A stretch of 64,000 nt of DNA from positions 32,001-96,000 of the forward strand of contig JBFLWF010000004.1 of assembly GCA_040758355.1 (NCBI GenBank), read 5' to 3'. A program made the translations under genes and the position numbers. The stretch comes from Nitrospirota bacterium (GTDB taxonomy: Bacteria; Nitrospirota; Thermodesulfovibrionia; Thermodesulfovibrionales; Dissulfurispiraceae). The notes below the pieces were generated by a model. The model was not told where the DNA came from, ran no database searches, and was given only the letters and a program-made list of their open reading frames with translations. Positions 17,965-33,700 of this stretch are shown here, in pieces (positions within the stretch are counted from its first letter, which is position 1; each line of letters opens with the position of its first letter).

Positions 17965-19131
17965 TTGAAGCACTTTAATCTTCTATATACTGCTATAGGG
18001 AATATAACAAGACACAGGCTGAGGAGTATTGTTGTGATCCTCTGCCTTGTGGCTATCCTGTTTCCGTTCATATCCGCAATTGCCATCCTGGACGGCGTTA
18101 AGTCCCAATCCCGCATTTCTGTGAATGAGGGGGCAAACATATATGTGACAATGGACATGTACGGCAGAAACGGTGTTACCCCCATCGAAATGGTCGAACC
18201 GATAAAAAAGGTAGATGGCGTCATAAAGGCAGTTCCGAGGGCCATCGGCAGGATATACATCAGCGGCAAGCTGGCAGTCCTGCTCGGAATACCAATTGAT
18301 GAATTGTCATCGGTAAGTTTTATCAGGGGAACATTGCCGAAGGCCGGTGAAATAGTCATCGGCAAAGGCATGGCAGATGCCCTCAATCTGAATATCAACG
18401 ACAGCATAACCATTGGAGTAAGGATAATGGCCATTATCGATGATACACCGTATATAATAAAAAGGCAGTATCGCATAGCAGGGATATTCGAACCACAATC
18501 AGGCATATGGGCATCCGACCTTGTTATGATGGATATCGATGATGCCAATTCGGTTTTTGAGACAGAGGGCTTTGCAACAGACATTGCTGTGTATGTAAAG
18601 CCCGGATATGAGTCGTCTGTGAGTAAAAGCATTCAGAAAATAAATCCCTTTTTCAGGATACAGACTAAAGGGCTTGTTAAGACCTATTTTGAGAGGGGAT
18701 TTAATATAAAGGGCGGCATCTTTGCCGCCCTTTACACTCTGGCCTTTGCCCTCGCTATCCCTGCAATCCTTGTCTCATCGGGCTTTGGCATGTCAGAGAG
18801 GAGGAAGGAGATAGGGATATTGAAGGCAGCCGGCTGGCAGACCCATGATGTTCTCGAGATGGTTCTTTTTGAGAATATTGTCCTTGCTATGATAAGCGCT
18901 CCGCTTTCCTTTATTATCTCATTCGTATGGGTGAGGTTATTCAACGGCTTTTTCATCGCCCAATTCTTTATTGCAGGCATAGAGAGCATCCCTTCATTCC
19001 CTGTGCCGTCTAAATTCATGCCTTTGCCGTTTTTGCTCTCCATATTCTTTTCCCTTGTCCTCACAATGGTAGGGAGCATCTATTCTGCGTGGAGGGCAGC
19101 CACTGTTCCACCTGCCGAGGCATTGAGATGA
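17965..19131 (+). CDS. FtsX/MacB-type ABC permease
   Basis: 1+3 TM with periplasmic domain; ERRKEIGILKAAGW; PPAEALR. Confidence 0.85.
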   Translation: MKHFNLLYTAIGNITRHRLRSIVVILCLVAILFPFISAIAILDGVKSQSRISVNEGANIYVTMDMYGRNGVTPIEMVEPIKKVDGVIKAVPRAIGRIYISGKLAVLLGIPIDELSSVSFIRGTLPKAGEIVIGKGMADALNLNINDSITIGVRIMAIIDDTPYIIKRQYRIAGIFEPQSGIWASDLVMMDIDDANSVFETEGFATDIAVYVKPGYESSVSKSIQKINPFFRIQTKGLVKTYFERGFNIKGGIFAALYTLAFALAIPAILVSSGFGMSERRKEIGILKAAGWQTHDVLEMVLFENIVLAMISAPLSFIISFVWVRLFNGFFIAQFFIAGIESIPSFPVPSKFMPLPFLLSIFFSLVLTMVGSIYSAWRAATVPPAEALR

Positions 19132-19799
19132 GTTTTATTCGGTGCGAAGGCGTATGGAAGATCTACAACGAGGCCAAGCCCTATGAGGTCAGGGCACTCG
19201 AGGATGCGAGTTTGGACATCGAGAAGGGTTCTTTTGCCATTTTCACAGGGCCATCAGGTTCCGGCAAGACAACCCTTATAAGCATAATAGGCTGCATTGA
19301 CAGACAGACAAGGGGAAGGGTATATATAGATGGAAAGGACCTGACCGATTTATCGGACATCGCACTTTCTTCATTAAGACGGAAAAGGATAGGTTTTGTA
19401 TTCCAGAACTTCAATCTCATACAGGGGCTTCCTGCATGGGAGAATGTATCCATGCCACTCATACCGATGGGAATGAAGGAGAATGATAGAAAACACACAG
19501 CAATTGAACTCCTGAAAAAAGTGGGATTGTCAGAGAGGTCTGAGCATTCGCCTGAAGAGATGAGCGGAGGAGAACAGCAGAGGGTTGCCATTGCAAGGGC
19601 ACTGGTCAACAATCCTGACATAATCATCCTCGATGAGCCTACATCGAATATAGATATCGATGCCGCATGTCTACTGATAGATATCCTTTCGGATTTAAAG
19701 CGGGAAGGCAAAACAATTCTCATGGCATCCCATGACGAAGGCATGCTGAAAATTGCCGATATAATCCATGAACTGAAACGCGGCCGTTTAGTAAAATGA
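19128..19799 (+). CDS. LolD/MacB-type ABC ATPase
   Basis: GPSGSGKT, MSGGEQQRV, LDEPT; ATGA overlap at 19128. Confidence 0.9.
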   Translation: MSFIRCEGVWKIYNEAKPYEVRALEDASLDIEKGSFAIFTGPSGSGKTTLISIIGCIDRQTRGRVYIDGKDLTDLSDIALSSLRRKRIGFVFQNFNLIQGLPAWENVSMPLIPMGMKENDRKHTAIELLKKVGLSERSEHSPEEMSGGEQQRVAIARALVNNPDIIILDEPTSNIDIDAACLLIDILSDLKREGKTILMASHDEGMLKIADIIHELKRGRLVK

Positions 19800-20803
19800 T
19801 ACTCAACGCTTTCACCATAATAATGCTCTTTATTGCAGTCCTCACAGGCGTCCTCGCCATCCCCCTCGGCATCCTCTCCTTTAAGGTTTATCAGAAATGG
19901 GGCAATGTCCTTTATGACGAGGAAAAGACCGCTATTATAAACAGGTCTTATCTCCTCGGTCTCATGGCCACTGTAATACTCTTTGTAAGGCTCCTTTCGT
20001 GGCCTTTGTTTTATGTGGCACTCCAGAGCTATGTTCCTGATGTCCACGGCGCAATGTGCATCTTTGGTGTTACAAGGCTCCAGCCAAATTTAACGGGGAT
20101 TGTCCAGGTATTAAAGCCCCTTGTATTTTTCTCGATTGGGGCATGGCTCCTCCTGAACCGCCTTGACAGGGCGACTGAGACCTCTCCGCTCTTCAGGAGG
20201 AAATTCCTCTTTCTTTCCATTGTGAGCGTTATGATAATCATGGACAGCACAGGAGACCTGATATACCTTACGGGATTTGATGTAAAGACATTTGTTTCTT
20301 GCTGCACTACCTACTTTGATCTGCCGGAAAGGCCTACAGCCGTGATTACAGAGTCATTATTGGGTGAAGGTTATGACCGCTATATGCTTCCCCTGTATTA
20401 TCTATCCGGCGCTTTATTCATTGCCGTGCAGTTTATCTCGTACCACCGCATGAGGAAAGGCTTTTCACATTCTATTAAGATCGGAATAATCGGCTTCGTC
20501 ATAGCTGTGATAAACGCAGTGATTACCGTTCTATCCATGTTTGAGGTTATTGCCCCTGAGATTATGAATATGCCTTTGCATCACTGCATCTATTGCATGT
20601 GGCAATATTCACCGCATTCCATTCTGATGACAACTCTATTTATTATTGGCACATTCTCGCCTGGATGGTCCCTTATCCTCAATGTAACAGGAAGGGACAA
20701 AGAGACAACGGCAGTTCTTGAAAGTTACCTTAAGAATCTCAATATACTCGGCATCGCAGGAATAGGCGCATCAGTATTAATGGCTACAGTGCATTTAGTC
20801 TGA
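19796..20803 (+). CDS. Polytopic membrane protein with Cys/His motifs
   Basis: Many TMs; HGAMC, SCCT, HHCIYC. Confidence 0.7.
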   Translation: MILNAFTIIMLFIAVLTGVLAIPLGILSFKVYQKWGNVLYDEEKTAIINRSYLLGLMATVILFVRLLSWPLFYVALQSYVPDVHGAMCIFGVTRLQPNLTGIVQVLKPLVFFSIGAWLLLNRLDRATETSPLFRRKFLFLSIVSVMIIMDSTGDLIYLTGFDVKTFVSCCTTYFDLPERPTAVITESLLGEGYDRYMLPLYYLSGALFIAVQFISYHRMRKGFSHSIKIGIIGFVIAVINAVITVLSMFEVIAPEIMNMPLHHCIYCMWQYSPHSILMTTLFIIGTFSPGWSLILNVTGRDKETTAVLESYLKNLNILGIAGIGASVLMATVHLV

Positions 20804-20906
20804 TTAAGGGACACACAATCCACATTTCGGGGCAATGATGTCCCATTTATCAGAGATGCATACCGTAATCTATAACCTATAGCCTTGTTTTTCAACGGCT
20901 TTTTTA

Positions 20907-20922
20907 TGGCATCTATTTTGCA
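20907..20922 (+). promoter_or_regulatory. Sigma54 -24/-12 promoter
   Basis: TGGCATCTATTTTGCA (GG-N10-GC). Confidence 0.6.
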
Positions 20923-20960
20923 ACGATATTGCATCGATGCCCTAAAACTGCAACTTCAAG

Positions 20961-20989
20961 TTGACATCCAACAGGGAGGTTTATAAAAT
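20961..20989 (+). promoter_or_regulatory. Sigma70 promoter, predicted start at the ATG (leaderless)
   Basis: TTGACA-17 nt-TAAAAT, ATG 7 nt downstream. Confidence 0.6.
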
Positions 20990-20995
20990 TAAATA

Positions 20996-21277
20996 ATGAG
21001 GCTGATTTCAGTAATAATTCTGATCGCCCTGAGCCTGTCGGTGATACCGCAGACGGTTGTTATACACCCATATGCCGGCACAGAGACGTCTATTTCGGTG
21101 CTTAATGTCTGCAACGGCTCCGGCACAGGCGTTCTGAGCAGCCTTGATATGCCATTTGTTAATGAATGTCCGTGCAAGCTTGTTCCATCGAGCTTTGCCG
21201 GTTTCCACGATATTCCAAATCCCATATTTAATCGATTCTTGGTAGCCTTTCAAAAAGAGCGCCCCCCTAAAGTCTAA
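20996..21277 (+). CDS. Putative metal-sensing leader/arrest peptide, copy 1
   Basis: Signal-like N-terminus, LNVCN, ECPCK, ends FQKERPPKV; paralog at 26965. Confidence 0.7.
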   Translation: MRLISVIILIALSLSVIPQTVVIHPYAGTETSISVLNVCNGSGTGVLSSLDMPFVNECPCKLVPSSFAGFHDIPNPIFNRFLVAFQKERPPKV

Positions 21278-21436
21278 TCTGTAGTTCCGAAGTTGCGAGT
21301 TGCTTTCATCTTACAGGCATTTCTGTGTCTGTATTTCGGATTGTCCATTAGGACATTCCTCCCCGTTTGACTCGGCTCCACTTCGGGAATCAACGCAAGA
21401 TCATAATCAAAAATTTCTGAAGTGGAGTCTTTTTTT
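21275..21436 (+). ncRNA. Structured cis-regulatory RNA / attenuator, copy 1
   Basis: 120-nt block nearly identical to 27250-27370; 17-bp terminator 21374-21429 plus T7; competing pairing of 21285-21301 with 21369-21388. Confidence 0.7.
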
Positions 21437-21459
21437 AAGATTTATCAGGAGGGTTTATA

Positions 21460-21642
21460 ATGGAAACAAACAATGAAGATGTAAATATGGGTTCGCTTTT
21501 AATTGAAACAGGTACAACAATTGCTTCTTTAATCCTGTTTCCGGTTCTGGCTCAGAGCTTGAAAATTCCCCCTGCACTTGTGCATGCTTTAAGAGTGATA
21601 AAAGCGAGAAGAAATGAATTAAGGGTTGAAACTACGAAATAA
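21460..21642 (+). CDS. Small hypothetical protein
   Basis: AGGAGG RBS; first ORF after the attenuator. Confidence 0.5.
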   Translation: METNNEDVNMGSLLIETGTTIASLILFPVLAQSLKIPPALVHALRVIKARRNELRVETTK

Positions 21643-21826
21643 AAATAAAGCAGATTTTAGCGGGTTGACAGAGAAGAGAAACTGTAAACTTAGATGCGAT
21701 CTCTGTCAGCTTGAGATAGAAGGGAAGCCGTTTGTTTTACATACAAAAGAAGGGGATAGATATTTCTGCTGTAAGGGCTGTATAGGAGTGTATGAAATTC
21801 TGCACTGGAATGAACTATCAAAATAA
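21626..21826 (+). CDS. Stand-alone metal-binding domain (CcoI N-terminal/TRASH-like)
   Basis: CDLC...YFCCKGC. Confidence 0.65.
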   Translation: MKLRNKNKADFSGLTEKRNCKLRCDLCQLEIEGKPFVLHTKEGDRYFCCKGCIGVYEILHWNELSK

Positions 21827-22004
21827 GGCAGACGTCAGGAGGTGATGGATATGGCTTCAAGGTTTAGATTCATAATACCGAGGGTAGCCCACTGTAGCGA
21901 GGGTTGCCATAGATAGTCCCGGGCATGACTTTAAACTGCCTGTTAGGAGCTTCTGGATAGCATGTGCCACCTGTAGCTTAAGACAGGAAGTTTTACGGGA
22001 GAAC

Positions 22005-22033
22005 TTGACGGAAGCAGGATTTCATATTACACT
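22005..22033 (+). promoter_or_regulatory. Sigma70 promoter
   Basis: TTGACG-17 nt-TACACT. Confidence 0.5.
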
Positions 22034-22068
22034 TGAGGTACGATTTGAAGAAATTCAGGGGGTGTGTT

Positions 22069-22446
22069 ATGGATCCGAAGATGATGGAAGAGTGCGCAAA
22101 GATGATGCAGGCTATGCAAGCTGGGGAAGGCAGTAAAATGGCTGCGGGTGCGACAGCAGGTGGTTATTTTCTGGGAAAGGGGATATTACGGAGACTCTTC
22201 GCAAGCCCTCTGGCAGTATTCGGCATCGGCGCTGCAGCAGGGATATTGGCTTATAAATATAGAAAAGAGATAATTAATGCCGTTGAACCTGCCAGGAAGG
22301 AAATTGTAAAGGCAGCCATGAAGGCGGCCGATGTTGGAAAGGATTTTGTCCTTGAGCAGAAAGAGAAGCTCTCCGATATAATCGCCGAAATAAAGGAGGA
22401 AGAGGAGGAAAAGGCCAAAAAACCCAAGGAAGCCCCTGAGAGATAA
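22069..22446 (+). CDS. Hypothetical membrane-associated protein of the P-type ATPase operon
   Basis: Met-rich N-terminus, Gly/Ala hydrophobic segments, charged tail. Confidence 0.65.
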   Translation: MDPKMMEECAKMMQAMQAGEGSKMAAGATAGGYFLGKGILRRLFASPLAVFGIGAAAGILAYKYRKEIINAVEPARKEIVKAAMKAADVGKDFVLEQKEKLSDIIAEIKEEEEEKAKKPKEAPER

Positions 22447-22450
22447 AGAT

Positions 22451-22996
22451 ATGAAAGGCCCGGGATCTGTTATAGATGATATCTACTTGCGTTATTCCGG
22501 AAAGGGGCATCTCAGGTTTTCCATCCCCCATGAGATATGTGGCGATGAGGCATCTGCTGTAATAGAGCAGGAGCTCATCCGGAAGGAAGGAGTTTACAGG
22601 GTCAGTGTATTTAAAAAGAGCAAGAAACTCTCGATCCGGTTTGATGAGACGGTTACGGGATTTAAAGATATATGCCTGAGCCTTAAGGAGATCGTGGAGG
22701 GGCTGCCCGAAACATCCCTGCAGAAGCCTGCCATTTCCGATCCCCCGGCCTTCTGGAGTGGACTGAAGGCAAAGATTAAGAAGGGGGAGAAGATACTTAG
22801 CGGTAAAATACCGATAACTAAAAAGGCAGAAAAAGAAGTAATAACCATCCTCAATGAAATTGCCGTATTCTACCTGATAGCACTCCACAGGGATGTTATC
22901 ACGAAAAAGCTGATCAAGAGCCCTCTTAAATATATTGGTGCATGGCTTACCCTCTTTTATCTTATTTTTCTCTATGTAAGACACAAGAAAGGCTGA
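22451..22996 (+). CDS. HMA-like domain protein
   Basis: GHLRF...EGVYRVSV...LSIRFD ferredoxin-like pattern; C-terminal TM. Confidence 0.6.
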   Translation: MKGPGSVIDDIYLRYSGKGHLRFSIPHEICGDEASAVIEQELIRKEGVYRVSVFKKSKKLSIRFDETVTGFKDICLSLKEIVEGLPETSLQKPAISDPPAFWSGLKAKIKKGEKILSGKIPITKKAEKEVITILNEIAVFYLIALHRDVITKKLIKSPLKYIGAWLTLFYLIFLYVRHKKG

Positions 22997-22997
22997 G

Positions 22998-25460
22998 ATG
23001 ACCGAAAAAACGCTCCCTTTCACCGTAGTCCACACACTTAAAAGGAGGTTGAGGGTCAAGGTCCCTGTTATAAGGAAAGACCCTCAAAAGGCATATATCC
23101 TTGAGATACTTTTGCGGAAGAGACCGGGGATAAAGGGTGTCAAATCCATTCCTCATACAGCAGGGGTTGTTATCCTTTTCGATCCATGCGAGCTTTCTCT
23201 AAATGACCTCCTCATGTTTTTAAAGGGTGTTGTCTCTGCACTCCCTGAGAAAAGGCTGTCATTCTTCAATAAGAAACATAGAAAAAAAACAACCTCATCC
23301 TTGCCATCAAGAGAGGTGAACCTTGCAATAGAAGGCATGACATGTCTGGCCTGTGCCCTCCTGATAGAGCTTGTTCTGAACAGGCATGATGATATAGAAA
23401 AGGCCTCAGTCAACTTCGCATCATCAACAGCCACGGTGCTTGGAGCGGCTTCGAGGGAGGAGATATTCGATTCCATCAAGAGGCTGGGTTATACGCCGCG
23501 GCCAATGGATACGCTCAGCCAGAGAAGGCTTCTCATGGAAAGGGAAAAGGAGCGCTTGAGAGAGGCAAAGAGGAGATTTATCTTCTCATCTCTGCTTACA
23601 CTTCCGGTTGTTGCAGCAGGCATGGCCATGCCAAGGTCGTTTGTTCCAAGATTTATCTCATTTCTGTTTGCCACGCCTGTGGTCTTCGGGGCAGGCAAAA
23701 CATTTTTTGCAAAGGCCATTAATCTGTCCAGGCAGGGAGCGACCAGCATGGATACCCTTATAGCCCTCGGCTCTGGTTCTGCATATTTCTACAGTACGGC
23801 AGCATTCCTTACAGGGAAAAGGGGTCTGTACTTTGATGCAGCGGCAGGGATAATAACGCTTATACTCTTTGGCAGATACCTCGAGGAAAAGGCAAAAGGC
23901 AAGGCAAGTGAAGCCGTAAGAAAGCTCATTGAACTCCAACCACTCACAGCCACAGTGATAAGGGACGGCGAGGAGAAAAGGATCGGGATTGATGAAGTGG
24001 TTGTTTACGATGAAATAATCGCGCGTTCCGGAGAAAGGATCCCTGTGGATGGAGAGGTTATTTTTGGAACTGCAGCAGTGGATGAATCCCTTGTTACCGG
24101 CGAGAGCATGCCGGTTGCTAAAAAACCAAAAAGCATGGTGACAGGTGGAACCATAAACATAAGCGGCACGATACGATTTAAGGCAACTGCCGTGGGAGCA
24201 GACACAATACTTTCCGGGATAATCAAAATGGTTGACCATGCACAGTCCTCAAAGGTTCCGGTCCAGCGACTGGCCGATAAGGTCTCCTCTGTCTTTATCC
24301 CTGTTGTTATGGGGATATCGGGAATGACATTTTTAGGATGGTTGCTCAGGGGCTATTCATTGTCAGCGTCCATGATGAATTCGGTCTCTGTGCTGTTAAT
24401 AGCCTGCCCGTGCTCCCTTGGCCTTGCCACACCCACGGCTATAATGGCAGGGACCGGAAGGGCGGCCAGGGAAGGGATATTTATAAGAAATGCAGAGGCT
24501 TTGGAAACTGCCTGTAAAATAGATGTCCTGATCATGGACAAGACAGGCACGATTACCGAGGGAATGCCTGCAGTGACAGACTTCCTGAACATCTCTAAGA
24601 TGAAAGATGATAAGGTGATACAATTTGCTGCCTCTGCCGAGTATTATTCAGAACACCATCTGGGCAATGCAGTCGTGGACTATGCAAGGTCAAAGGATAT
24701 AAGAATTGTTGAGGCATCTAAATTTAAATCCTTTATCGGCAAAGGGATTAAGGCGGTTGTAAATAAAAAGGAGGTAGTGGTTGGTAATGCTGTCCTGTTT
24801 AAAAACCAGAAAATACCTTTAGGAGGGTTGTTGAAAGAGGCAAGCCGATTGAGCGAACAAGGCAAGACCCCTGTTTTTATAGGAGTAGATGGTAAGGCTG
24901 TTGGTCTCCTTGCCATTTCAGACAGCCCCAGAAAGACATCCTCTGATGCAATAAAAAAACTCGGGTCAATGGGCATAGAGACCATCATGGTCACAGGCGA
25001 CAATCCGAGGACAGCCAGATATATTGCCGAAATGGTCGGAATAGAACATGTCATTGCCCACGCAGTCCCGGAGCAGAAGGTAAAGATAATAAAATCGCTG
25101 AGAGAAAAGGGGAGGGTCGTTGGGATGATAGGCGATGGCATTAATGATGCCCCAGCCCTTGCTACTGCGGATGTTGGGTTTGCCATAGGCACAGGCACAG
25201 ATATAGCGATTGAGACTGCCCAGGTTACCCTTGTGGGCGGGGATATCTCCAAGGTGCTGGATGCCATCTCTCTCAGCAGAAAAACAATGACCATTATCAA
25301 ACAGAACCTCTTCTGGGCATTTGCCTATAATACCCTCTCCATACCGCTGGCAGCCTTTGGTGCATTAAGCCCCACCATAGCTGCAGGGGCGATGGCCTTG
25401 AGTTCTGTTTCGGTTGTAACCAATTCCCTCAGATTGCAGAAATATAAGAGTGATATATAG
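22998..25460 (+). CDS. copA: Cu(I)-type heavy-metal P1B ATPase
   Basis: GMTCLAC, TGES, CPC, DKTGT, GDGINDAP, YN and MALSS. Confidence 0.9.
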   Translation: MTEKTLPFTVVHTLKRRLRVKVPVIRKDPQKAYILEILLRKRPGIKGVKSIPHTAGVVILFDPCELSLNDLLMFLKGVVSALPEKRLSFFNKKHRKKTTSSLPSREVNLAIEGMTCLACALLIELVLNRHDDIEKASVNFASSTATVLGAASREEIFDSIKRLGYTPRPMDTLSQRRLLMEREKERLREAKRRFIFSSLLTLPVVAAGMAMPRSFVPRFISFLFATPVVFGAGKTFFAKAINLSRQGATSMDTLIALGSGSAYFYSTAAFLTGKRGLYFDAAAGIITLILFGRYLEEKAKGKASEAVRKLIELQPLTATVIRDGEEKRIGIDEVVVYDEIIARSGERIPVDGEVIFGTAAVDESLVTGESMPVAKKPKSMVTGGTINISGTIRFKATAVGADTILSGIIKMVDHAQSSKVPVQRLADKVSSVFIPVVMGISGMTFLGWLLRGYSLSASMMNSVSVLLIACPCSLGLATPTAIMAGTGRAAREGIFIRNAEALETACKIDVLIMDKTGTITEGMPAVTDFLNISKMKDDKVIQFAASAEYYSEHHLGNAVVDYARSKDIRIVEASKFKSFIGKGIKAVVNKKEVVVGNAVLFKNQKIPLGGLLKEASRLSEQGKTPVFIGVDGKAVGLLAISDSPRKTSSDAIKKLGSMGIETIMVTGDNPRTARYIAEMVGIEHVIAHAVPEQKVKIIKSLREKGRVVGMIGDGINDAPALATADVGFAIGTGTDIAIETAQVTLVGGDISKVLDAISLSRKTMTIIKQNLFWAFAYNTLSIPLAAFGALSPTIAAGAMALSSVSVVTNSLRLQKYKSDI

Positions 25461-25887
25461 TATGCTGGTTTCTGTTATCAAGACAATTCTTGCAGTATTG
25501 CTGGTGTTTTATTATACTCATGCCTGCCGGCAGTATGAACCTGATTATGGACCCGACTGTGATATTGACAGGGGTCCCTGTACTAAAAGGATTGACAATA
25601 TAGAGATTGCCATTGACATAAACCCAAAGCCTGTGGAGGCAATGAAAGAACTCTCATTCACTGTTAATTTAAGAGGCAGCAGTGGCCATGAAAAATTAAT
25701 TGTCGACCTCGTTATGCCTGGCATGTATATGGGGGAAAACAGGGTTTTATTGAAAAAGTCTGCTGACGGTGAATTTACCGGCGTAGGTATAATACCGAGA
25801 TGTCCCAGCGGGAAAAGGCTGTGGCGTGCCACGATAGAAATACCCGATATAGGGAAAGTTGATTTTTTATTCAATGTTAAAAAGTGA
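25450..25887 (+). CDS. Exported YtkA/FixH-like hypothetical protein
   Basis: N-terminal hydrophobic segment; MPGMYMG, IPRCPSG. Confidence 0.6.
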   Translation: MIYSMLVSVIKTILAVLLVFYYTHACRQYEPDYGPDCDIDRGPCTKRIDNIEIAIDINPKPVEAMKELSFTVNLRGSSGHEKLIVDLVMPGMYMGENRVLLKKSADGEFTGVGIIPRCPSGKRLWRATIEIPDIGKVDFLFNVKK

Positions 25888-26563
25888 TTCCCTTTATATT
25901 TTGATGTTTACCTCAGGCCTCCTCGGCGGTTTTGGACATTGCATCGGCATGTGCGGCCCGATTGTAGCTACATATTCGCTGAATTTAAAGGGCAGGTACC
26001 TTCCCCATCTGCTCTACAATCTGGGAAGGATCACCACTTATACCATCATCGGCGGGATAATGGGATTAACAGGTTCATTTGTTGGTGTTGTTAAATTCAT
26101 AAAAGGCCTTCAGAATATAACGATGGCATTTGCCGGGATAATGATGGTCCTCATGGGGCTTGGTATTGGTGGATGGTTGCCATTTTTAAAAGGCAAAAAC
26201 ACCCCTTCTCTGATCCCTTTTATAGCCCGTGCAATGCGATCGATTTCCGAGGTGAAGACAATAAGTGCATTTTACCCAATGGGTGTTATACTCGGGTTTC
26301 TTCCCTGCGGAATCCTTTATACTGCCTTTATTGCAGCAGCGGGTGTGGGCATGGAATCCGGGAATCAAATCGAGGGATTTCTGAAAGGGATGCTCATGTT
26401 GTTTTTATTCGGGGTCGGCACATTTCCATCTCTTTTTCTCTTTGGGAAGTTTGTCTCAGTTATAGGCGAAAAGTTGAGGGGAAAGCTATATAAAGGCTCT
26501 GCAATCCTGATTATTTTGATGGGGATCATATTTGTTTACAGGTCATTAAAACTGTGGTACTAA
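25874..26563 (+). CDS. DsbD_2/UreH-like membrane protein
   Basis: GHCIGMCG, YNLGRITTY, GFLPCG, FGVGT. Confidence 0.85.
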   Translation: MLKSDSLYILMFTSGLLGGFGHCIGMCGPIVATYSLNLKGRYLPHLLYNLGRITTYTIIGGIMGLTGSFVGVVKFIKGLQNITMAFAGIMMVLMGLGIGGWLPFLKGKNTPSLIPFIARAMRSISEVKTISAFYPMGVILGFLPCGILYTAFIAAAGVGMESGNQIEGFLKGMLMLFLFGVGTFPSLFLFGKFVSVIGEKLRGKLYKGSAILIILMGIIFVYRSLKLWY

Positions 26564-26574
26564 AACTTTAATAT

Positions 26575-26702
26575 GCGGAAAACAAAGCATTTTCGCTTCA
26601 TTCTCGGCAGGCATCCAGCCTGCCTCCGAAGCAAAGACAGCCCGCTTAGGCATCCATGCCACGCTTGGGCTGTCCAAGTCGCTCCAATACTTTGTCTTCC
26701 GC
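26575..26702. repeat. Nested-palindrome dispersed repeat; partial inverted copy at 44839-44902
   Basis: Outer arms GCGGAAAACAAAG / CTTTGTCTTCCGC with inner hairpins; 55/64 identity to the second copy. Confidence 0.7.
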
Positions 26703-26827
26703 TTTGACTTGCGTAATTTATGAATTATAGGCTAAAAGAGGAGAAAATTGCGGCATAAATGTCACAGTGTGTTTGTGCAGGGGAATATGCCTTGCTGAAA
26801 ATAAAGCGTTTTTTCTCTGGTTTTAAT

Positions 26828-26843
26828 AGGCATAATATTTGCT
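26828..26843 (+). promoter_or_regulatory. Sigma54 -24/-12 promoter
   Basis: AGGCATAATATTTGCT (GG-N10-GC). Confidence 0.55.
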
Positions 26844-26964
26844 CTACACATATAATAATTTAATATTATTCTTTGGATTGAAGAAGTGCAGTTAGTTAAA
26901 TGGTAAGATTTTATAATTATAATTTGATATTGACATGGAAAGATTGCATAGTTTAAATTTCCAC

Positions 26965-27252
26965 ATGAAAATTAAAAGCATATTGGTTCTGATTGCTATA
27001 ATTGTCTCAATAGCATCGCCATTTCATCCCGCTGTTTCCTATGCATCAGACAGCAATGGAACAAAGATCTTCACTCTCGATGTATGCAACGCATCGAGCC
27101 CATCCCTGTCCGTAAATGCAGATATGCCGTTCGTTTACGAATGTCCGTGTAAACATATCTCTTTAGGATTTGCCAGCTTTTATGAAGGGTTAAACCCTGT
27201 ATTCAATACATTCCTTGTTGTCTTCCAGAAAGAATATCCTCCGGAAGTATAA
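26965..27252 (+). CDS. Putative metal-sensing leader/arrest peptide, copy 2
   Basis: MKIKSILVL signal, LDVCN, ECPCK, FQKEYPPEV; TTGACA at 26930 and a -10-like box at 26953-26959 just before the ATG. Confidence 0.7.
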   Translation: MKIKSILVLIAIIVSIASPFHPAVSYASDSNGTKIFTLDVCNASSPSLSVNADMPFVYECPCKHISLGFASFYEGLNPVFNTFLVVFQKEYPPEV

Positions 27253-27412
27253 TCTGTAGTTCCGAAGTTGCGAGTTGTTTTTCATCTTACAGGCATTTCT
27301 GTGTCTGTATTTCGGATTGTCCATTAGGACATTCCTCCCCGTTTGACTCGGCTCCACTTCGGGAATCAACTAAATCCATTTAAATTAATTTCTGGGGTGG
27401 AGCCACCTTTTT
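27250..27412 (+). ncRNA. Structured cis-regulatory RNA / attenuator, copy 2
   Basis: Same block as 21275-21394; 17-bp stem 27350-27404 with pairing-preserving changes, then a T-run. Confidence 0.7.
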
Positions 27413-27437
27413 AAAAAATCATAATCAGGAGGGTTGG

Positions 27438-29525
27438 ATGAGGTGTTTTCTATTGATATTATTATCTGTAGTGCTTTCTTGCAGCATTGTATTTGCAGAA
27501 GAAGCAAAGAAGCTTGAGGAAGTTGTTGTAACCGCAACGAGGACCGAGAGAACAACGGAAGAAATTCCAGCAGGCGTAAGCGTTGTGACAAAAGAGGATA
27601 TAAAAGACATGAGGATGTTCGGAGTAAGAGAGGCGCTTACAGGCATTGCGGGCGTACAGTCAGAGACAAAGAACGGAGGCTATGATGCGCGACTGATAAT
27701 AAGGGGCGCAGGCCTTAAGGCGAGATACGGCATAAGAGAGATCATGGTACTCCTTGACGGTGTTCCTCTCACAGATCCGGATGGCATGACAAATCTTGAT
27801 CGTGTCGACACCCAGCTTGTTGACAGGGTTGATGTTGTGAAAGGGCCAAATTCGACTCTTTACGGCGCAAATGCAGCAGGCGGCGTTATCAACATCATTA
27901 CCAAAAACCCATTTGAAGAAATAAAAAGCGTAAAAATCGGTTACGGCAGCGACAATACGCAGTTGTATAACCTGATTTACGGGACAAGTTTTGGCGGAAA
28001 AACTTATATCACGCTTTCCGGAAGCAGGCGCTCAACCGATTCATGGAGGGCATGGAATGAGTTCAGCACCAATCAGGCAGGCTTGAAACTCGGACACATG
28101 TTTGATGACAAAACCCTGCTTGAGGCGAACATCAGTTATACAAAGTCCGATTTTCAGCTACCGGGCGTGCTTACAAAGCCACAGTTTGACAGCGATATCA
28201 CACAGCTTACCAGCGAGAGGTGGAGACATTCCGGCAGGTACAGCGAGGTATTAAATACAAGCCTGAAGTTTGAAAAAGAGATTGGCAATGTGAAACTGAA
28301 GCCTCTTGCCTATTTCCAGTCATGGCATCATTACCATCCGGTTACGGCATTTATCAATGACGGAGGAGCAAATGTCTATGGCGCGGATATTCAGCTTGAC
28401 ATAAAGCACAAGATAGCAGGCATGGAAGGGGTGCTGACAGCAGGAATTACAGGACAGATAGATGAGGCGAGCGGAGATAAATATACTTATAGGGATGTGT
28501 TTCCATCTACCGCAAGATATCCTTCCACAGCAACCCTTGAGTATACCCTTTCCGATGAAAAGGATGCGCTTGCTGAAAAGAGCAGCGATACTACAACGAA
28601 GTGGGGTATTTATCTTCAGGAATCAATAAGGCCGTCTGATAAATGGATAATAGACCTCGGAGTGAGATACGACGAGGTGGGTTTTGATATCAGTACGGAC
28701 ACTTATATAAAGTATCGCTATGCCCCTCCTGGCGCTCCTAACAGGTATTATGCGAGCACAGAGACAATCAGAAGAGATAAGACTTTTGACTATGTGAGTC
28801 CGAGAGCAGGTGTTGTTTATAAGCTGAGCAAGATTTTTAATCTCTACGGCAATATTTCGACAGGGTTTCAGACTCCACAGTCATCTGAACTCAGCACCAG
28901 TTCAGACCTGAATCCTTCCGTGACTACCAATTACGAGGCAGGAGTAAAGGCAAGGTTTGACGGAGGACACAGTTTTGACCTTTCCCTATTTCATGCAATA
29001 GTGGATGACGAGATCGTGCAGATAAGGCAGCCTGACACCAGCACGACCTACAGCAATGCAGGCGAAACAAGAAAGAGGGGTGTTGAATTATCGGGCAGGG
29101 CGCAGGTATTAAAAGGTCTTTTCCTCGGGGGCTCTTATACATACAGCGATTTTAAATTTGTGAAGTTTACAGAGGTAATAAGCGGCGTCAACAGGAGCAG
29201 GGATGACAACAGATACCCTTATATCCCGATGCATCAATACAGCCTGTATGCTTACTACAAACACCCATCAGGCTTCAAGTTCAAGGTCGATACCTACACA
29301 TGGGGGAAATATTTTGTGGACAATGCAAACTCCGATACTTATAAAGGATATACATTCCTTACAAATGCCCTTATCGGATATGAGATGAAGAATTTTGATA
29401 TAACCTTTGATGTAAACAATGTCTTTGACAAGAGGTATGCCATGGAGGTGACAAAGGAGACAGACTTGAAATATCGGCCTGGAGCGCCTATGTCAATGAT
29501 GGGAAGGATAACATATAAATTTTAA
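27438..29525 (+). CDS. TonB-dependent outer-membrane receptor
   Basis: TonB box EEVVVTA, plug VVKGPNSTLYGANAAGGVINIIT, NVFDKRY, C-terminal F. Confidence 0.93.
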   Translation: MRCFLLILLSVVLSCSIVFAEEAKKLEEVVVTATRTERTTEEIPAGVSVVTKEDIKDMRMFGVREALTGIAGVQSETKNGGYDARLIIRGAGLKARYGIREIMVLLDGVPLTDPDGMTNLDRVDTQLVDRVDVVKGPNSTLYGANAAGGVINIITKNPFEEIKSVKIGYGSDNTQLYNLIYGTSFGGKTYITLSGSRRSTDSWRAWNEFSTNQAGLKLGHMFDDKTLLEANISYTKSDFQLPGVLTKPQFDSDITQLTSERWRHSGRYSEVLNTSLKFEKEIGNVKLKPLAYFQSWHHYHPVTAFINDGGANVYGADIQLDIKHKIAGMEGVLTAGITGQIDEASGDKYTYRDVFPSTARYPSTATLEYTLSDEKDALAEKSSDTTTKWGIYLQESIRPSDKWIIDLGVRYDEVGFDISTDTYIKYRYAPPGAPNRYYASTETIRRDKTFDYVSPRAGVVYKLSKIFNLYGNISTGFQTPQSSELSTSSDLNPSVTTNYEAGVKARFDGGHSFDLSLFHAIVDDEIVQIRQPDTSTTYSNAGETRKRGVELSGRAQVLKGLFLGGSYTYSDFKFVKFTEVISGVNRSRDDNRYPYIPMHQYSLYAYYKHPSGFKFKVDTYTWGKYFVDNANSDTYKGYTFLTNALIGYEMKNFDITFDVNNVFDKRYAMEVTKETDLKYRPGAPMSMMGRITYKF

Positions 29526-29528
29526 AAA

Positions 29529-29566
29529 GGGGGATTCAGTAAGGGGGACAAAGTCCCCCTTACTGA
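29529..29566. repeat. Short palindromic element (family also at 29629, 31745, 38595, 63481)
   Basis: GGGGGATTC prefix, then TCAGTAAGGGGGAC-AAA-GTCCCCCTTACTGA. Confidence 0.65.
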
Positions 29567-29568
29567 TT

Positions 29569-30603
29569 ATGGAAATGCGATTCTTTTTGAGTTTAGTTGT
29601 AGTTTTAATTGCAGTGGTCAATTCTGAAGGAAATTTCGGAAGGGGGACAAAGTCCCCCTTCCGTGCAGAGGCTATGTTCCTCTCCGAAAATCCTCCTGCC
29701 GGACATTCAGGCGGCCATAAAGAGCACAGGGGTGGAGAAAGAAGCGATAGGAAAAGCGGGCAAAGAGGCGGCGAACATTCGGAGCACAGGGCTGCGCCCG
29801 TAAAAAAGTTTTATCTCAATATTCATGACCTTTCTGACAGCGCAAAGGCTTATGTCCTGCGGCCTGATGGCTCAATAACAGAAGGCAGATTAAGCCATGA
29901 CGAAGGCGCATGGAGCGTTACATTCGATACAAAACCGATGGACGGCTCGATGGATGGGGTTTTTAATGTCTATGTAGTGGACAAGCAGGTTTCCGACGGA
30001 ACGCTCCTTATCAGGGTTGCAAAGATGAATGCAATAAACCATAGCTGCGGATGGGGACATAAGTACAAATTCGATAAGGAAAGGCAGAGGCCGAAACATC
30101 TTGATTCAATACCGCTTGAGATAGTAGGTCATGACCTGTGGAACAGCTACTTTCATACGCAGACAATGTCAGGCGATAAATTTGTTTTTTCTGTGTTGCA
30201 TAACGGAAAGCCTGTCAGTGCCTCTGTTAAAGTGCGGACTCAGAGCGGATGGATGAAGATGTTCAAGACCGATGACGACGGCAAGGGTTCATTCCAGCTT
30301 ATAAGGGATTATTACCCTGAAAAGTGGAATGATTTCAAGGCAAGGAAGAGGAGCGGTTTCGTAATCACGGCAGAGTATGAGGCCGATGAAAAAGGCATGT
30401 ATGAAGGCAAGAGCTATAACAGGATCAAGCTTGTAACGACCATTCCATGGAGATACCAGCCCCAGCGCAGTGAATATACATCTTACGCATATGGTCTGGG
30501 AATAGCAGTTGCCTTTGCTATTGCCGGAGGTCTTGCTGTTTATATTCACCGTGAGAGGCGCAAGAGGCCTTACAGAGAGGTAAGGTTTAATGAGAAGAAT
30601 TAG
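29569..30603 (+). CDS. Periplasmic His-rich DUF4198-like protein with C-terminal membrane anchor
   Basis: Signal peptide, GHSGGHKEH...EHSEH, HSCGWGH, PLEI...NGKP...TDDDGK, C-terminal TM. Confidence 0.6.
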   Translation: MEMRFFLSLVVVLIAVVNSEGNFGRGTKSPFRAEAMFLSENPPAGHSGGHKEHRGGERSDRKSGQRGGEHSEHRAAPVKKFYLNIHDLSDSAKAYVLRPDGSITEGRLSHDEGAWSVTFDTKPMDGSMDGVFNVYVVDKQVSDGTLLIRVAKMNAINHSCGWGHKYKFDKERQRPKHLDSIPLEIVGHDLWNSYFHTQTMSGDKFVFSVLHNGKPVSASVKVRTQSGWMKMFKTDDDGKGSFQLIRDYYPEKWNDFKARKRSGFVITAEYEADEKGMYEGKSYNRIKLVTTIPWRYQPQRSEYTSYAYGLGIAVAFAIAGGLAVYIHRERRKRPYREVRFNEKN

Positions 30604-31582
30604 GGAGTTTATCTATAGCGCAGACATAAATCGCTTCAGGATTTACTTCCAAGTATTCGCTTTCGGACTGCTCATATACGGAGGCTATCTGGCCATTGAT
30701 ATAAGCACAAACCTCCCGACCTTTGCCTGTCCTTTTGTAGGAAACAGCAGGGGAGGAACCTGCTATCTGTATCCGCTTCAACATCAGGTCAATATGCCTT
30801 TTGCACAGTTTATAGGCGGAAGGGGCATCGCCTTTTTGACAGGGCTTATAACGTTTGTGCTTCTGTTCATGCTTTTCAACAAGGCGTGGTGCGGGTTTGC
30901 ATGTCCCCTCGGCACAATTCAGGACTGGATAACAAAGCTGCGGAGCAAGCTCGGCACAAGATACAGCACATACCCTGAAGGCACATTTAACGGGCTGAAA
31001 AAAATAAAGTATATACTTCTTGCTCTACTCATTCTGTTGACGCTGGGCATGAGCAACGCTGTCCCGGGTATTGGGAAACTCTCCGAGGACTTCATGACTC
31101 CTTACTGTATGCTATGTCCAGGAAGGACAGTGCTTCCGATTTTCAATGGGGACATAAAACAACTCGTTGTGGATTTCAGTTCAAAGACAAAGCTTACCCT
31201 CACAGCGCTCGGCATGGCCGTTACAGGGACTTTTTTTGTGGGGGCGTTCGTTAAAAAACGCTTTTTCTGTTTTTTCTGTCCAATGAGCGCACTGCATTAC
31301 ATATTTTCGAAGGCTGGACTTTTGAGACTGATTAAGGACGGCTCAAAGTGTACGAAATGCGGCAACTGCTACAGGGTCTGCGATGTGGGGATAAAAGAGA
31401 TAGCGGATGACGTGGTCAGCAAAAACATAGTGAAGGATGACTGCATGATGTGTTTTAAATGCGTTGCAGCTTGCCCTGAGGAGAAGTGTCTTGATGTGAA
31501 ATTTTTAGGTTTGCCTGTTTATCGCTCTACAGAGCAGGGCTTTTTCAAAAGAATGGAGGGAAAAGTTAAAAATGGAAATTGA
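30590..31582 (+). CDS. NapH/MauN-like membrane 4Fe-4S protein
   Basis: CGFACP, CMLCP, CFFCP and two CxxCxxCxxxC. Confidence 0.85.
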   Translation: MRRIREFIYSADINRFRIYFQVFAFGLLIYGGYLAIDISTNLPTFACPFVGNSRGGTCYLYPLQHQVNMPFAQFIGGRGIAFLTGLITFVLLFMLFNKAWCGFACPLGTIQDWITKLRSKLGTRYSTYPEGTFNGLKKIKYILLALLILLTLGMSNAVPGIGKLSEDFMTPYCMLCPGRTVLPIFNGDIKQLVVDFSSKTKLTLTALGMAVTGTFFVGAFVKKRFFCFFCPMSALHYIFSKAGLLRLIKDGSKCTKCGNCYRVCDVGIKEIADDVVSKNIVKDDCMMCFKCVAACPEEKCLDVKFLGLPVYRSTEQGFFKRMEGKVKNGN

Positions 31583-32888
31583 AAGACTCGAAAGAATAAA
31601 AAAGACAACTGCGGTTCATCTCGCAATGGAGGCAAAGGATGCCCTGAAAAAGATAACAGAGGATTTCCCGGATAATCCTGATGCAATGGAATACTTTTAT
31701 TCCCTGCTTCATAAGTTTTATACAGATGGCGAGCTTTTTAAAGAGGGGGTTCGTGGGGTAGACAAAGTCTCCACCACGCTCATAGGAACGATGTGCATTC
31801 AGGTTCCTGAAGAGCTTATCTATGCAGCAGGAGCAAGACCGATAAGATTATGCAGCGGCGCTTACGCATATGATCAGACAGGCGCTGAATTCATGCCTGC
31901 GAAGTCATGCTCTCTGGTTAAGGCAACACTGGGGATGCTGAATATCAAAAATATGCCTTTCAAGGATTCATTGAGCGCCATAATAGTCTCTACAACCTGC
32001 GACCAGAAGAAAAAGGCGGCGGATATGCTAAAAGAAATGGGCTATAAGACATATACGCTCGAAATGCCTTCGGTAAAAGATACCGAGGAGGCGCGCTTTT
32101 ACTGGCAGAACTCGGTAAAGAATTTTGCATCTGCGATTGAGGATATATCCGGAAACAGGATTACAAAAAAAGGATTGAACGAAGCAGTGATGAAGACTAA
32201 CAGGGCAAGGGCTGAATTCAGGAGATTCAATAACTTCAGGAAGAGCGCACATCCGCTTATATACGGAAAAGACTCATTTGTTGTAGCCAATGCCTACTTC
32301 TTTGACGGCATCGAACAATGGACAGAGGCGCTTGCAAAACTCAACGCCGAACTCGAAGATAGAGACAATAGAGGGGTATCGGTTGCTAATAGGCATGCGC
32401 CGAGGATTTTGTTTACCGGCTCTCCTGCGATATTTCCAAATCTCAAGCTTCCTCTGCTTATAGAGCAGTCGGGCGGGGTTATCGTTGCCGATGAGGTATG
32501 CTCTTCTTCAAGGCTTCTGTATGACTCTGTGAGCTTCGATGAAGGCAATCTCTATGACATGATCCCTGCCATCGCAGACAGATATTTAAAGCCGTGCACC
32601 TGCCCATGTTTTGCGGAAAATGAAGACAGGAAGAGGAAACTGCTCGAAATGGTAAGAGGCTTTAATGTTGACGGCGTTGTGTATCAGGCATTTTCAGGAT
32701 GTCATCTATACGAGATGGAGCATAAGTCTGTAGGAAAATTGCTTGAAGCAGAAGGGGTTCCGATGCTCTATATAGAGACCGATTACAGCCCTGAAGATAC
32801 CGGACAGTTGTCCACGAGGATTGAGGCGTTCATGGAGTCTATTAAAAACAGGAAGAGAAGTAAATTGCAAGGAGGATGTGACAGGTGA
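31572..32888 (+). CDS. 2-hydroxyacyl-CoA dehydratase-family protein, double-cubane-cluster (DCCP)-like
   Basis: GTMCIQVPEELIYAAG, RLC, SC, TTCDQKKK, EVC, CTCPC, GCH, IETDYS, TRIEAF. Confidence 0.8.
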   Translation: MEIERLERIKKTTAVHLAMEAKDALKKITEDFPDNPDAMEYFYSLLHKFYTDGELFKEGVRGVDKVSTTLIGTMCIQVPEELIYAAGARPIRLCSGAYAYDQTGAEFMPAKSCSLVKATLGMLNIKNMPFKDSLSAIIVSTTCDQKKKAADMLKEMGYKTYTLEMPSVKDTEEARFYWQNSVKNFASAIEDISGNRITKKGLNEAVMKTNRARAEFRRFNNFRKSAHPLIYGKDSFVVANAYFFDGIEQWTEALAKLNAELEDRDNRGVSVANRHAPRILFTGSPAIFPNLKLPLLIEQSGGVIVADEVCSSSRLLYDSVSFDEGNLYDMIPAIADRYLKPCTCPCFAENEDRKRKLLEMVRGFNVDGVVYQAFSGCHLYEMEHKSVGKLLEAEGVPMLYIETDYSPEDTGQLSTRIEAFMESIKNRKRSKLQGGCDR

Positions 32889-33700
32889 AATATTTTGCCG
32901 GCATTGATATAGGCTCTACAGCAATAAAGATAGTCCTGATAGACGAATCAGGGGACATAGTTGCACACCAGACTTCCCCTACAGGCAGCCATTTCCATAA
33001 GAACACGCTGGACAGTTTCCATATGCTGCTTGAAAGGACAGGCACAAAAAAAGAAGACGTAGCCTATATCACATCCACCGGTTACGGCAGGAAGCTTTTT
33101 AAAGAGGCTGATGAGTCCATAAGTGAGATAACCGCAAATGCCGCAGGCGCCAGAATTATCGGAAAAGATTACGGAGCGGTGCGGACAATCATCAATATAG
33201 GAGGACAGGACTCAAAGGTGATACTCATCGATGATGCAGGCCATGTAAAAAACTTTACAATGAATGACAAGTGTGCCGCAGGCACAGGAAGATTCCTTGA
33301 AATGACTGCGAGGAATTTAGGTGTGGAGGTTGATGAACTGGGGACAATGCACCTGAACGCAAAAGATATTCCCTTAACCATCAACAGCACCTGCACTGTC
33401 TTTGCCGAATCAGAGATAATAAGCCTTTTGGCAAACGGACATGAAAGGGAGGAGATTATAGCAGGAGTTCACTATTCCATTGCAAGGAGGATAGTGCGCC
33501 TTGCAAAGCGGATAGGCATTGAAGACATGGTCTTTTTTGACGGCGGCCCGGCTATGAACAGGGGGCTTGTTGCAGCCATGGAAGACGAGTTGATGAGAAG
33601 TATCATAGTGCCTGAGATACCCCAAATTACCACTGCACTCGGTGCAGCAGTCATTGCCAGAGAAGCTTTTCTTGCAGAAGGAGAGAAGGTTCATGCATGA
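32885..33700 (+). CDS. BadF/BadG/BcrA/BcrD-type ATP-dependent activator/reductase
   Basis: GIDIGST, TGYGR, IGGQDSK, MNDKCAAGTGRFLE, STCTVFAESE. Confidence 0.92.
   Translation: MKYFAGIDIGSTAIKIVLIDESGDIVAHQTSPTGSHFHKNTLDSFHMLLERTGTKKEDVAYITSTGYGRKLFKEADESISEITANAAGARIIGKDYGAVRTIINIGGQDSKVILIDDAGHVKNFTMNDKCAAGTGRFLEMTARNLGVEVDELGTMHLNAKDIPLTINSTCTVFAESEIISLLANGHEREEIIAGVHYSIARRIVRLAKRIGIEDMVFFDGGPAMNRGLVAAMEDELMRSIIVPEIPQITTALGAAVIAREAFLAEGEKVHA

Follow-up and report, generated by a model that had tools for sequence, protein, structure and literature searches.

What do two short, related open reading frames (ORFs) do at the head of two operons in the genome of a Nitrospirota bacterium of the family Dissulfurispiraceae (GenBank assembly GCA_040758355.1)? 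Both lie within positions 32,001 to 96,000 of contig JBFLWF010000004.1, a forward-strand stretch of 64,000 nucleotides (nt) called the window below, in whose own numbering all positions are given. A preliminary description of this DNA took them for leader peptides that would sense metal through cysteines, arrest the ribosome at a C-terminal Pro-Pro and act through an attenuator that follows. The results of this work suggest, with moderate confidence on our part, that in each module an exported leader peptide drives transcription attenuation through the position of the ribosome, and they support, by comparison of sequences, that the two window copies act through a conserved terminator/antiterminator pair beginning at the stop codon.

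20996-21277, + strand: leader ORF A, 93 amino acids (aa), with predicted N-terminal export helix, invariant Cys39 in LNVC, CPC at 58-60 and ERPPKV before the stop
21263-21268, + strand: Pro-Pro codons of leader A
26965-27252, + strand: leader ORF B, 95 aa from an internal ATG, with predicted export helix, invariant Cys in LDVC, CPC and EYPPEV before the stop
27238-27243, + strand: Pro-Pro codons of leader B
21278-21394 and 27253-27370, + strand: near-identical stretch after the stop, copies A and B

Two leaders and the RNA element behind them

The two leader proteins share 41 of 95 residues (43%) over their full length (BLASTP, E 8e-26), so that their paralogy is far beyond chance, and a profile search of the 2.77-Mb genome finds leaders A and B as the only copies of their family. 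The motifs that had been pointed out in them, L[ND]VCN, DMPFVxECPCK and FQKE[RY]PPxV directly before the stop, are indeed present in both, and the reported boundaries of the two ORFs hold; the longest version of the leader B frame begins at 26935, the ATG at 26965 being internal. Between CPC and Pro-Pro the alignment is ungapped, with the 29 residues previously counted in A and in B.

At the DNA level, identity between A and B is about 60% within the ORFs and nearly 100% from the stop codon on, for about 118 nt, after which it drops. Each near-identical stretch ends in a long hairpin and a U-run, which bears out the attenuator proposed to follow the leaders, and the same element is found behind ORFs of this family in other genomes. 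A mobile repeat, such as a miniature inverted-repeat transposable element, was ruled out as the source of the identical 118 nt, given that the genome has two copies only and that the element sits after the ORF elsewhere too.

The RNA element is a three-way junction that begins 6-9 nt past the leader stop and is followed by an intrinsic terminator. Its parts are, in order, the 5′ strands of P1a (UUCCGAAGU) and P1b (CGAGUC), a variable hairpin P2, a hairpin P3 ending in CCUCCCC, and the 3′ strands of P1b (GACUCG) and P1a (ACUUCGGAA). In the window these parts, and the Shine-Dalgarno (SD) sequences behind them, are placed as follows.

21285-21293 and 21296-21301, + strand: P1 5′ strands, copy A, P1a UUCCGAAGU (beginning 7 nt after the stop) and P1b CGAGUU
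21313-21332 and 21338-21359, + strand: hairpins P2 and P3, copy A, with covariation
21358-21364, + strand: conserved junction CCUCCCC, copy A, with CTCCCC kept at 90% or more
21369-21374 and 21380-21388, + strand: P1 3′ strands, copy A, P1b GACUCG and P1a ACUUCGGGA, within the terminator 5′ arm
21374-21390, 21413-21429 and 21430-21436, + strand: terminator 5′ arm, 3′ arm and U-run, copy A
21447-21453, + strand: SD AGGAGGG, copy A, then the first operon gene (ATG 21460)
27260-27268, 27271-27276, 27345-27350 and 27356-27364, + strand: P1a 5′, P1b 5′, P1b 3′ and P1a 3′ strands, copy B
27289-27308 and 27314-27335, + strand: hairpins P2 and P3, copy B
27350-27366, 27388-27404 and 27408-27412, + strand: terminator 5′ arm, 3′ arm and U-run, copy B
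27427-27433, + strand: SD AGGAGGG, copy B, then the TonB-dependent receptor gene (ATG 27438)

Of the 67 leader ORFs with downstream DNA, 49 are followed by the element according to a covariance model built from 30 sequences, each match starting at or near the stop codon. In the junction, whose alignment was fitted to that modelled structure, 84.7% of the cells are paired, compared to 31-53% when the partners are slid by 1-3 columns; 25 of the 31 pairs change on both sides (all six in P2 and nine of the 11 in P3), and none of 500 shuffles matches the observed values. The terminator offers a fairer test, because its 3′ arm was not modelled as paired: 93.6% of its cells are paired (33-52% when slid), seven of its 14 pairs change on both sides, and the U-run comes after. 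The P1 3′ strand spans alignment columns 160-178 and overlaps the terminator 5′ arm (columns 164-177); with columns 164-178 used by both folds, the two structures are mutually exclusive, column 170 covarying with both its partners, that in the junction and that in the terminator. The transcript of the window copies up to the P1 3′ strand is predicted to fold as the junction (-40.6 kcal/mol), and the full element to prefer the terminator (-50.1 and -51.9 kcal/mol, as opposed to -43.5 and -46.7 kcal/mol with P1a forced).

In whole-genome covariance searches, the RNA matches lie directly downstream of a family ORF in 46 of 48 cases among 151 genomes of the window's order, and adjoin one in 20 of 21 among 151 genomes of a phylum sample. 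The spacer between stop and P1a measures 6-9 nt in 39 of 49 loci (mode 7), and in 35 of 49 P1a begins 15-17 nt after Pro-Pro; the sole member with a PP + 1 tail carries a 9-nt spacer, keeping the PP-to-P1a total.

This constancy bears on the idea that the three-way junction is a riboswitch-like aptamer for some cytoplasmic ligand or protein, which decides termination alone and to which the ORF is a neighbour or a second input. A P1 3′ strand that overlaps the terminator is riboswitch architecture, bases of the junction for which a plain antiterminator has no need are kept (CUCCCC after P3 at least 90% conserved, GUAU after P2 at least 70%), and the junction is nearly identical in the window copies despite their diverged ORFs. 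The conserved CUCCCC and the within-genome identity go beyond a plain antiterminator and keep a riboswitch-like or factor-binding reading alive. There are, moreover, three RNA matches without an ORF: one beside a tRNA gene (L094, G089:C244), truncated and with a promoter-like TTGACA of its own, a weak one also in genome G089, and a weaker one after a superoxide dismutase gene (L132, G282:C1:132374-132554). However, the first of these lacks the P1 5′ strand and resembles a remnant, and a free-standing riboswitch would have no reason to abut the leader ORF so regularly, mostly at the same 6-9 nt. No Rfam family comes near its threshold either (Rfam 15 gives no match overlapping the element at E ≤ 1 within 18000-34000, and the best score within 21240-21470 is 15.7 bits for a gathering score of 44), and a mutual-information scan for pseudoknots or tertiary pairs ranks terminator and junction pairs at the top, with no convincing extra helix. 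We therefore find it quite improbable that the junction alone is the switch.

A leader family with and without the RNA

Leaders A and B, neither of which has any Pfam match, belong on the evidence of their sequences to an unnamed Nitrospirota family. Run over 1.84 billion representatives, a full HMMER scan returned 176 clusters of it at E ≤ 0.001; a word-indexed search found just six. By six-frame searches, 96 of the 201 genomes of the window's order have it. At the level of the phylum the figure is 91 of 301, among them 49 of the 64 belonging to a family in another class, and a genome often carries 2-5 paralogues. Matches in the ESM Atlas are unnamed clusters only, mostly from Bacteroidota, and serve as a lead only. 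A match in a 3951-aa protein (P0018) might have meant that the domain also exists fused or repeated, but this was rejected, as the family profile does not match the protein.

Cys39, Pro90 and Pro91 do not vary across the 145 members aligned, and Leu36, Asp37, Val38, Pro18, Pro53, Glu57 and Glu/Asp88 are nearly invariant, the last being found in 141. Position 89 is Arg in 88 members, His in 31 and Gln in 10, which makes the C-terminal consensus [ED]-[RHQ]-P-P-x-x-stop, with a tail of exactly two residues after Pro-Pro in 132 of 153 members. The N-terminus has Lys/Arg at position 2, a hydrophobic stretch at 3-17 and the conserved Pro18. A lipobox at L-D-V-C was excluded: judged by the lipobox consensus, Asp and Val are unsuitable at positions -2 and -1, and the Cys stands about 20 residues past the hydrophobic stretch. 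In the DNA of 70 family loci, the first Pro codon is CCU in 49 and the second CCA in 40, and the second base after the stop is C in 60, preferences that may come from RNA pairing, from the stop context or simply from codon usage. The codons CCU-CCA-AGA-GUC found at ORF ends resemble the P3 3′ and P1b 5′ strands, and are not shared by the window copies.

This conservation moves the presumed sensor away from where it had been placed. The CPC motif was first taken as the conserved metal site, but ECPC occurs in just 27 of 141 members and the sole invariant cysteine is that of L-D-V-C. The argument that 29 residues from CPC to Pro-Pro make a ribosome-tunnel length loses its footing with it, because the distance that the family conserves is the one from the invariant Cys to Pro-Pro, 51 residues in 116 of 141 members and 49-52 in 139, which exceeds the ribosomal tunnel.

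Could the ORF encode a working periplasmic peptide, a carrier of metal or thiol or a precursor, with the RNA as a partial terminator that sets the ratio of first gene to operon and no stalling at all? The mature part is under some constraint throughout (TLDVC, D51, P53, E57 and the hydrophobic pattern), radical-SAM and beta-propeller genes follow in three loci, and the ORF persists in lineages and loci that have no RNA element. AlphaFold2, however, finds no confident fold from an alignment of 87 sequences: it predicts helix 2-15 only, the remainder being coil with predicted local distance difference test scores of 50-65, at a predicted template modelling score of 0.24. This modelled outcome fits a peptide that does not fold by itself. 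To our knowledge, precursor peptides normally lack Sec-type signals. The tightest constraints are on the position of Pro-Pro relative to the stop and on the distance from stop to P1a, which a partial terminator does not explain, and a mutually exclusive, covarying antiterminator implies a switch. A periplasmic role instead of an attenuator is, in our view, unlikely.

Many ORFs occur without the RNA while the RNA nearly always adjoins an ORF, for which reason the peptide appears, on comparison of these loci, to be older and more general than the junction-terminator, which would be one of its read-outs. In a set of 17 further loci (L096-L112), picked from genomes with an ORF by the profile but no RNA match by the model, the tails include YPPEN, HPPESA and DQPPKTV, and the shorter intergenic regions have a hairpin and an SD; several carry a CCUCCC...GGGAGG-type hairpin just ahead of the SD of the next gene. 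Such hairpin-SD loci may use a translational read-out like that of CutF, the Rhodobacter capsulatus leader discussed in the last section.

Ribosome position, downstream genes and the signal

The attenuator model that we favour begins at the promoters.

20961-20989, + strand: promoter of leader A, TTGACA, 17 nt, TAAAAT, with 11 of 12 consensus matches, ending 6 nt before the ATG
26930-26959, + strand: promoter of leader B, TTGACA, 18 nt, TAAATT, ending 5 nt before the ATG
26914-26927: AT-rich palindrome TAATTATAATTTGA, upstream of the leader B promoter

Because these promoters end 5-6 nt before the ATG, the leader mRNAs are probably leaderless, as judged from the sequence. A -35-like hexamer stands 34-42 nt ahead of the ATG in 61 of 64 family loci, where no SD sequence is visible. 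An AT-rich partial palindrome, with AATTnTAAnTTnA as its family consensus, adjoins the -35 hexamer in most family loci and could be an UP element or the operator of some regulator; a search of the window's own genome for a regulon of it returned leader B only, and one site with three mismatches within an unrelated gene.

The leader mRNA would thus start at its own AUG, with the first ribosome close behind the polymerase, and this ribosome would carry a nascent chain made of the export helix, the invariant Cys 51 residues before [ED]-[RHQ]-Pro-Pro, two more codons and the stop. A ribosome protects about 15 nt on the 3′ side of the first P-site base. Held with Pro-Pro in its P and A sites, it would end about at the stop and leave free the P1a 5′ strand, as P1 begins 15-17 nt after the Pro-Pro codons, beyond the held ribosome; the junction could then close and sequester the terminator 5′ arm, and the polymerase would read into the operon (ON). 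A ribosome with the stop codon in its A site, on the other hand, would cover about 10 nt past the stop, including the first 3-4 nt of P1a, so that an unhindered ribosome would intrude on P1a, the thermodynamically favoured terminator would form and transcription would end at the U-run (OFF). It is this footprint geometry that suggests the polarity, a stall being ON, and given the fixed arrangement of Pro-Pro, two codons, stop, about 7 nt and helix, a ribosome shift of 9 nt is predicted to flip the terminator. The comparative evidence establishes the anatomy of the peptide, the two exclusive folds, their constant spacing to the stop and the near-obligate tie of the RNA to the ORF; stalling, its polarity and the signal are what we infer from them.

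What the switch would control is seen in the genes that follow.

21460-26563, + strand: operon A, with a 60-aa membrane ORF, a TRASH-domain protein, two small ORFs, a Cu-type P1B ATPase, a 145-aa ORF and a DsbD_2 protein
21460-21642, 21626-21826 (TRASH-domain protein), 22033-22446 and 22451-22996, + strand: small ORFs between leader A and the ATPase
22998-25460, + strand: Cu-type P1B ATPase
27438-34304, + strand: operon B, with a TonB-dependent receptor, a DUF4198-like protein, a NapH-like ferredoxin, a double-cubane-cluster reductase with its activator ATPase and a DsbD_2 protein
27438-29525, + strand: TonB-dependent receptor gene, directly after the leader B module

Of the two leaders said to precede metal-transport operons, B stands directly before the receptor gene, while A heads the operon of the ATPase with four small ORFs in between. 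The first of these (21460-21642) is probably a real gene, because a look-alike directly follows a family leader in another genome (L110, G187). Operon B continues with an unusual set of genes behind a TonB-dependent receptor (30590-34304), namely the NapH-like ferredoxin membrane protein, a double-cubane-cluster anaerobic reductase (370 bits, cut-off 350), a BcrAD/BadFG-type activator ATPase and DsbD_2.

Outside the window, 57 loci have a co-directional downstream ORF. The commonest first gene, in 20 of them, encodes a C_GCAxxG_C_C protein with a signal for twin-arginine translocation (Tat), a relative of split-Soret cytochrome c that scores 141 bits, short of the cut-off of 400. TonB-dependent receptors and NosL come first in seven loci each, multihaem cytochromes in five (often with rhodaneses next), beta-propellers in three, YtkA in one and another family in one; 13 first genes have no Pfam match. 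The claimed linkage of the family to metal transport applies to 28 of the 57 loci, where a TonB-dependent transporter, NosL, CopD, TonB, an FtrD-like protein, YtkA or CbiM is among the first three genes, and does not extend to the remainder. CopA, NosL and CopD being among the neighbours, our best guess for the signal is copper, the likeliest candidate; with cytochromes, rhodaneses, TusA, redoxins and DsbD_2 proteins also encoded nearby, the signal may instead be a thiol or redox one.

The same list of genes bears on another explanation, in which the attenuator works as described but the Pro-Pro pause reports export through the Sec system or the signal recognition particle, or the general capacity for translation or EF-P, in the manner of SecM and with no metal or thiol ligand. 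The export helix is conserved, a fixed distance of 51 residues between Cys and Pro-Pro would be apt for a pulling-force sensor, the genes most often found downstream code for exported proteins (Tat-signal split-Soret-like proteins, multihaem cytochromes, outer-membrane receptors) and TatC follows in two loci; arrest peptides of RAPP type are, in the available text of PMC10987492 and PMC12992588, best known upstream of sec and yidC genes. Yet no sec, yidC or secDF gene is found downstream among the 57 loci, and the invariant Cys with the acidic D51 and E57 suggests chemistry rather than pull alone. Also, 2-5 diverged paralogues per genome in front of different operons fit different signals better than one housekeeping signal. 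A pure monitor of secretion or translation seems improbable to us on balance.

Several observations weigh against the attenuator model itself, or against copper as its signal. The terminator is more stable than the antiterminator by 5-7 kcal/mol, so that antitermination requires a kinetic or tertiary advantage, and since P1 would also form without any ribosome the model needs tight coupling between translation and transcription. An ordinary Pro-Pro pause at E-R-P-P might be cleared by EF-P, which is conceivable because this motif differs from RAPP and RGPP, the ones shown to arrest robustly. The covariation is uneven: P1a, nearly fixed in sequence, scarcely covaries, P1b is paired in just 71% of cells, and the fitting of the junction alignment to its modelled structure tempers the values found there. 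The coupling has exceptions on both sides, in the three RNA matches without an ORF and in the leader ORFs without the element (18 of 67, and all 17 of the L096-L112 set). For a metal site the peptide is thin, as 15 of 141 members have no Cys beyond the invariant one, and metal-transport genes follow in no more than the 28 loci mentioned above. Four of the 61 non-window loci with enough flank have no co-directional downstream gene, the first large ORF being on the opposite strand in three and the flank just 635 nt in one. Finally, the one metatranscriptome run gave a single contig, 21873-22086, which lies outside the leader.

The attenuator and the riboswitch-like reading could also be combined. 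The leaderless arrest peptide would use its invariant Cys to report on Cu(I) or thiol status in the periplasm, the junction with CUCCCC would be an aptamer or protein site reporting a cytoplasmic signal, and termination would integrate both. We consider such a two-input switch doubtful; were it true, an identical RNA platform with diverged sensors could serve different signals, or opposite polarities, in front of the uptake-like and the CopA operon.

Two further observations concern the DNA around the modules. Between the DsbD_2 gene and leader B (26575-26805), contig depth is about 4- to 30-fold over the surroundings in three DNA runs (e.g., 978 vs about 232 in X1), and many contigs break there or run on differently; this stretch is probably a repeat common to other places or organisms. 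In a related population (run X5), some contigs join 21223 to 27199, from leader A to leader B, omitting 5975 nt, and others join 21470 to 25873, from the end of module A onward, omitting the 4402-nt ATPase operon. These junctions may be structural variation, or assembly jumps via the repeated leader module.

Comparison with known systems

The leaders had been described as a divergent DUF2946-type family, after CruR and CutF. What stands of this is the anatomy, since the unnamed family shares with both a cysteine and a C-terminal Pro-Pro, next to its own putative export signal; membership in DUF2946 does not stand, nor does the RAPP/RGPP motif, in place of which the family has [ED]-[RHQ]-P-P. 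Neither of the two window proteins matches the DUF2946 model (PF11162) at E ≤ 0.01, weak matches are found in three of 87 family members (best E 0.0011), and the best match elsewhere in the genome reaches 12.5 bits for a cut-off of 23.7. Instead of CXXC the window has CPC, a CxC, and where DUF2946 proteins have RAPP and three further residues, A and B finish with E-R-P-P-K-V and E-Y-P-P-E-V. A fixed Cys-to-PP spacing is found in both families, but it is 51 here and 45 in CruR.

CruR (Bp2923 of Bordetella pertussis), the DUF2946 prototype, is nevertheless close in its setting. Like leader B, it is the small first gene of a metal-uptake operon with a TonB-dependent transporter, and its arrest at the C-terminal proline motif keeps the downstream genes on until copper relieves it, according to the accessible part of PMC9426467; the polarity is the one proposed here, arrest being ON. 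The differences are in the peptide, R-A-P-P plus three residues and a CXXC in CruR compared to [ED]-[RHQ]-P-P plus two and a single invariant Cys, and in the read-out, where CruR relies on termination by Rho and the window on a conserved intrinsic terminator opposed by a covarying three-way-junction antiterminator. CruR is, moreover, proteobacterial, whilst the family of the window belongs to Nitrospirota and its promoter looks leaderless.

CutF provides the other half of the comparison. It stalls at a C-terminal Pro motif in an export-dependent way (PMC9973294; bioRxiv 10.1101/2025.02.05.636593, as far as their available text describes it), and the idea proposed for the window is the same, that of a nascent chain which is exported during translation, senses the periplasm and thereby holds the ribosome. 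Both window ORFs agree with the ‘CutF-like’ rules given in the accessible text of PMC9973294 on size, tail and neighbour (less than 150 aa, PP within the last 15 residues, a same-strand gene within 1000 nt), with 93 and 95 aa, PP at -4 and -3, and next genes 182 and 185 nt past the stop; for the N-terminal signal that these rules also ask for, the hydrophobic stretch and the predicted helix 2-15 are a candidate. CutF, however, acts on translation, melting a stem-loop over the ribosome-binding site of the next gene (same source), whereas the window has a terminator/antiterminator pair of about 160 nt as its read-out and no stem-loop hiding a ribosome-binding site, the SDs lying after the terminator U-run. 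In its available part, the main text of PMC9973294 is silent on Nitrospirota, NosL and attenuation.

In its RNA, the window is nearer to the trpL type of attenuator, which likewise has a leader ORF, an intrinsic terminator with an exclusive antiterminator, and an outcome decided by the position of the lead ribosome; the sequence provides an intrinsic terminator between leader and operon and an exclusive, suitably placed antiterminator. The bmrB leader of Bacillus subtilis is said to be a classical ribosome-mediated transcription attenuator. Unlike trpL and bmrB, the window involves neither an antibiotic nor regulatory codons for an amino acid in short supply; the pause would fall at a conserved Pro-Pro in a 95-aa exported peptide, and the antiterminator is a conserved three-way junction where theirs is a simple hairpin.

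As for the arrest motif, RAPP and RGPP arrest robustly and resist EF-P (PMC10951233, PMC12992588, in the parts available). ApdA, ApdP and ApcA resemble the window leaders: there too a small secretory protein encoded ahead of regulated genes carries the motif close to its C terminus, and a Pro is expected in the A site on arrest (same sources). In the family of the window, by contrast, Arg adjoins Pro-Pro without an intervening Ala or Gly, and many members have His, Gln or Tyr in its place; arrest by this motif is a supposition.

A search of the open-access literature on CutF stalling, DUF2946, RAPP arrest, C_GCAxxG_C_C and Thermodesulfovibrio attenuation found no description of the family or of the RNA. 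The covariance model and the protein profile can serve the annotation of genes missed by gene callers and Pfam, and the family marks a regulon of split-Soret-cytochrome-like Tat proteins, NosL, TonB-dependent receptors, CopD, CopA and multihaem cytochromes with rhodaneses. Nitrospirota are largely uncultured anaerobes of subsurface and groundwater samples.

In conclusion, the design seen in these sequences is that of CruR and CutF, with an intrinsic terminator set against a three-way junction that differs from both. Copper-sensing exported leaders have been studied in these two proteobacterial systems; the present family would extend the principle to Nitrospirota, adding a different stall motif, a single invariant cysteine and a third read-out, beside the Rho of CruR and the ribosome-binding-site hairpin of CutF.

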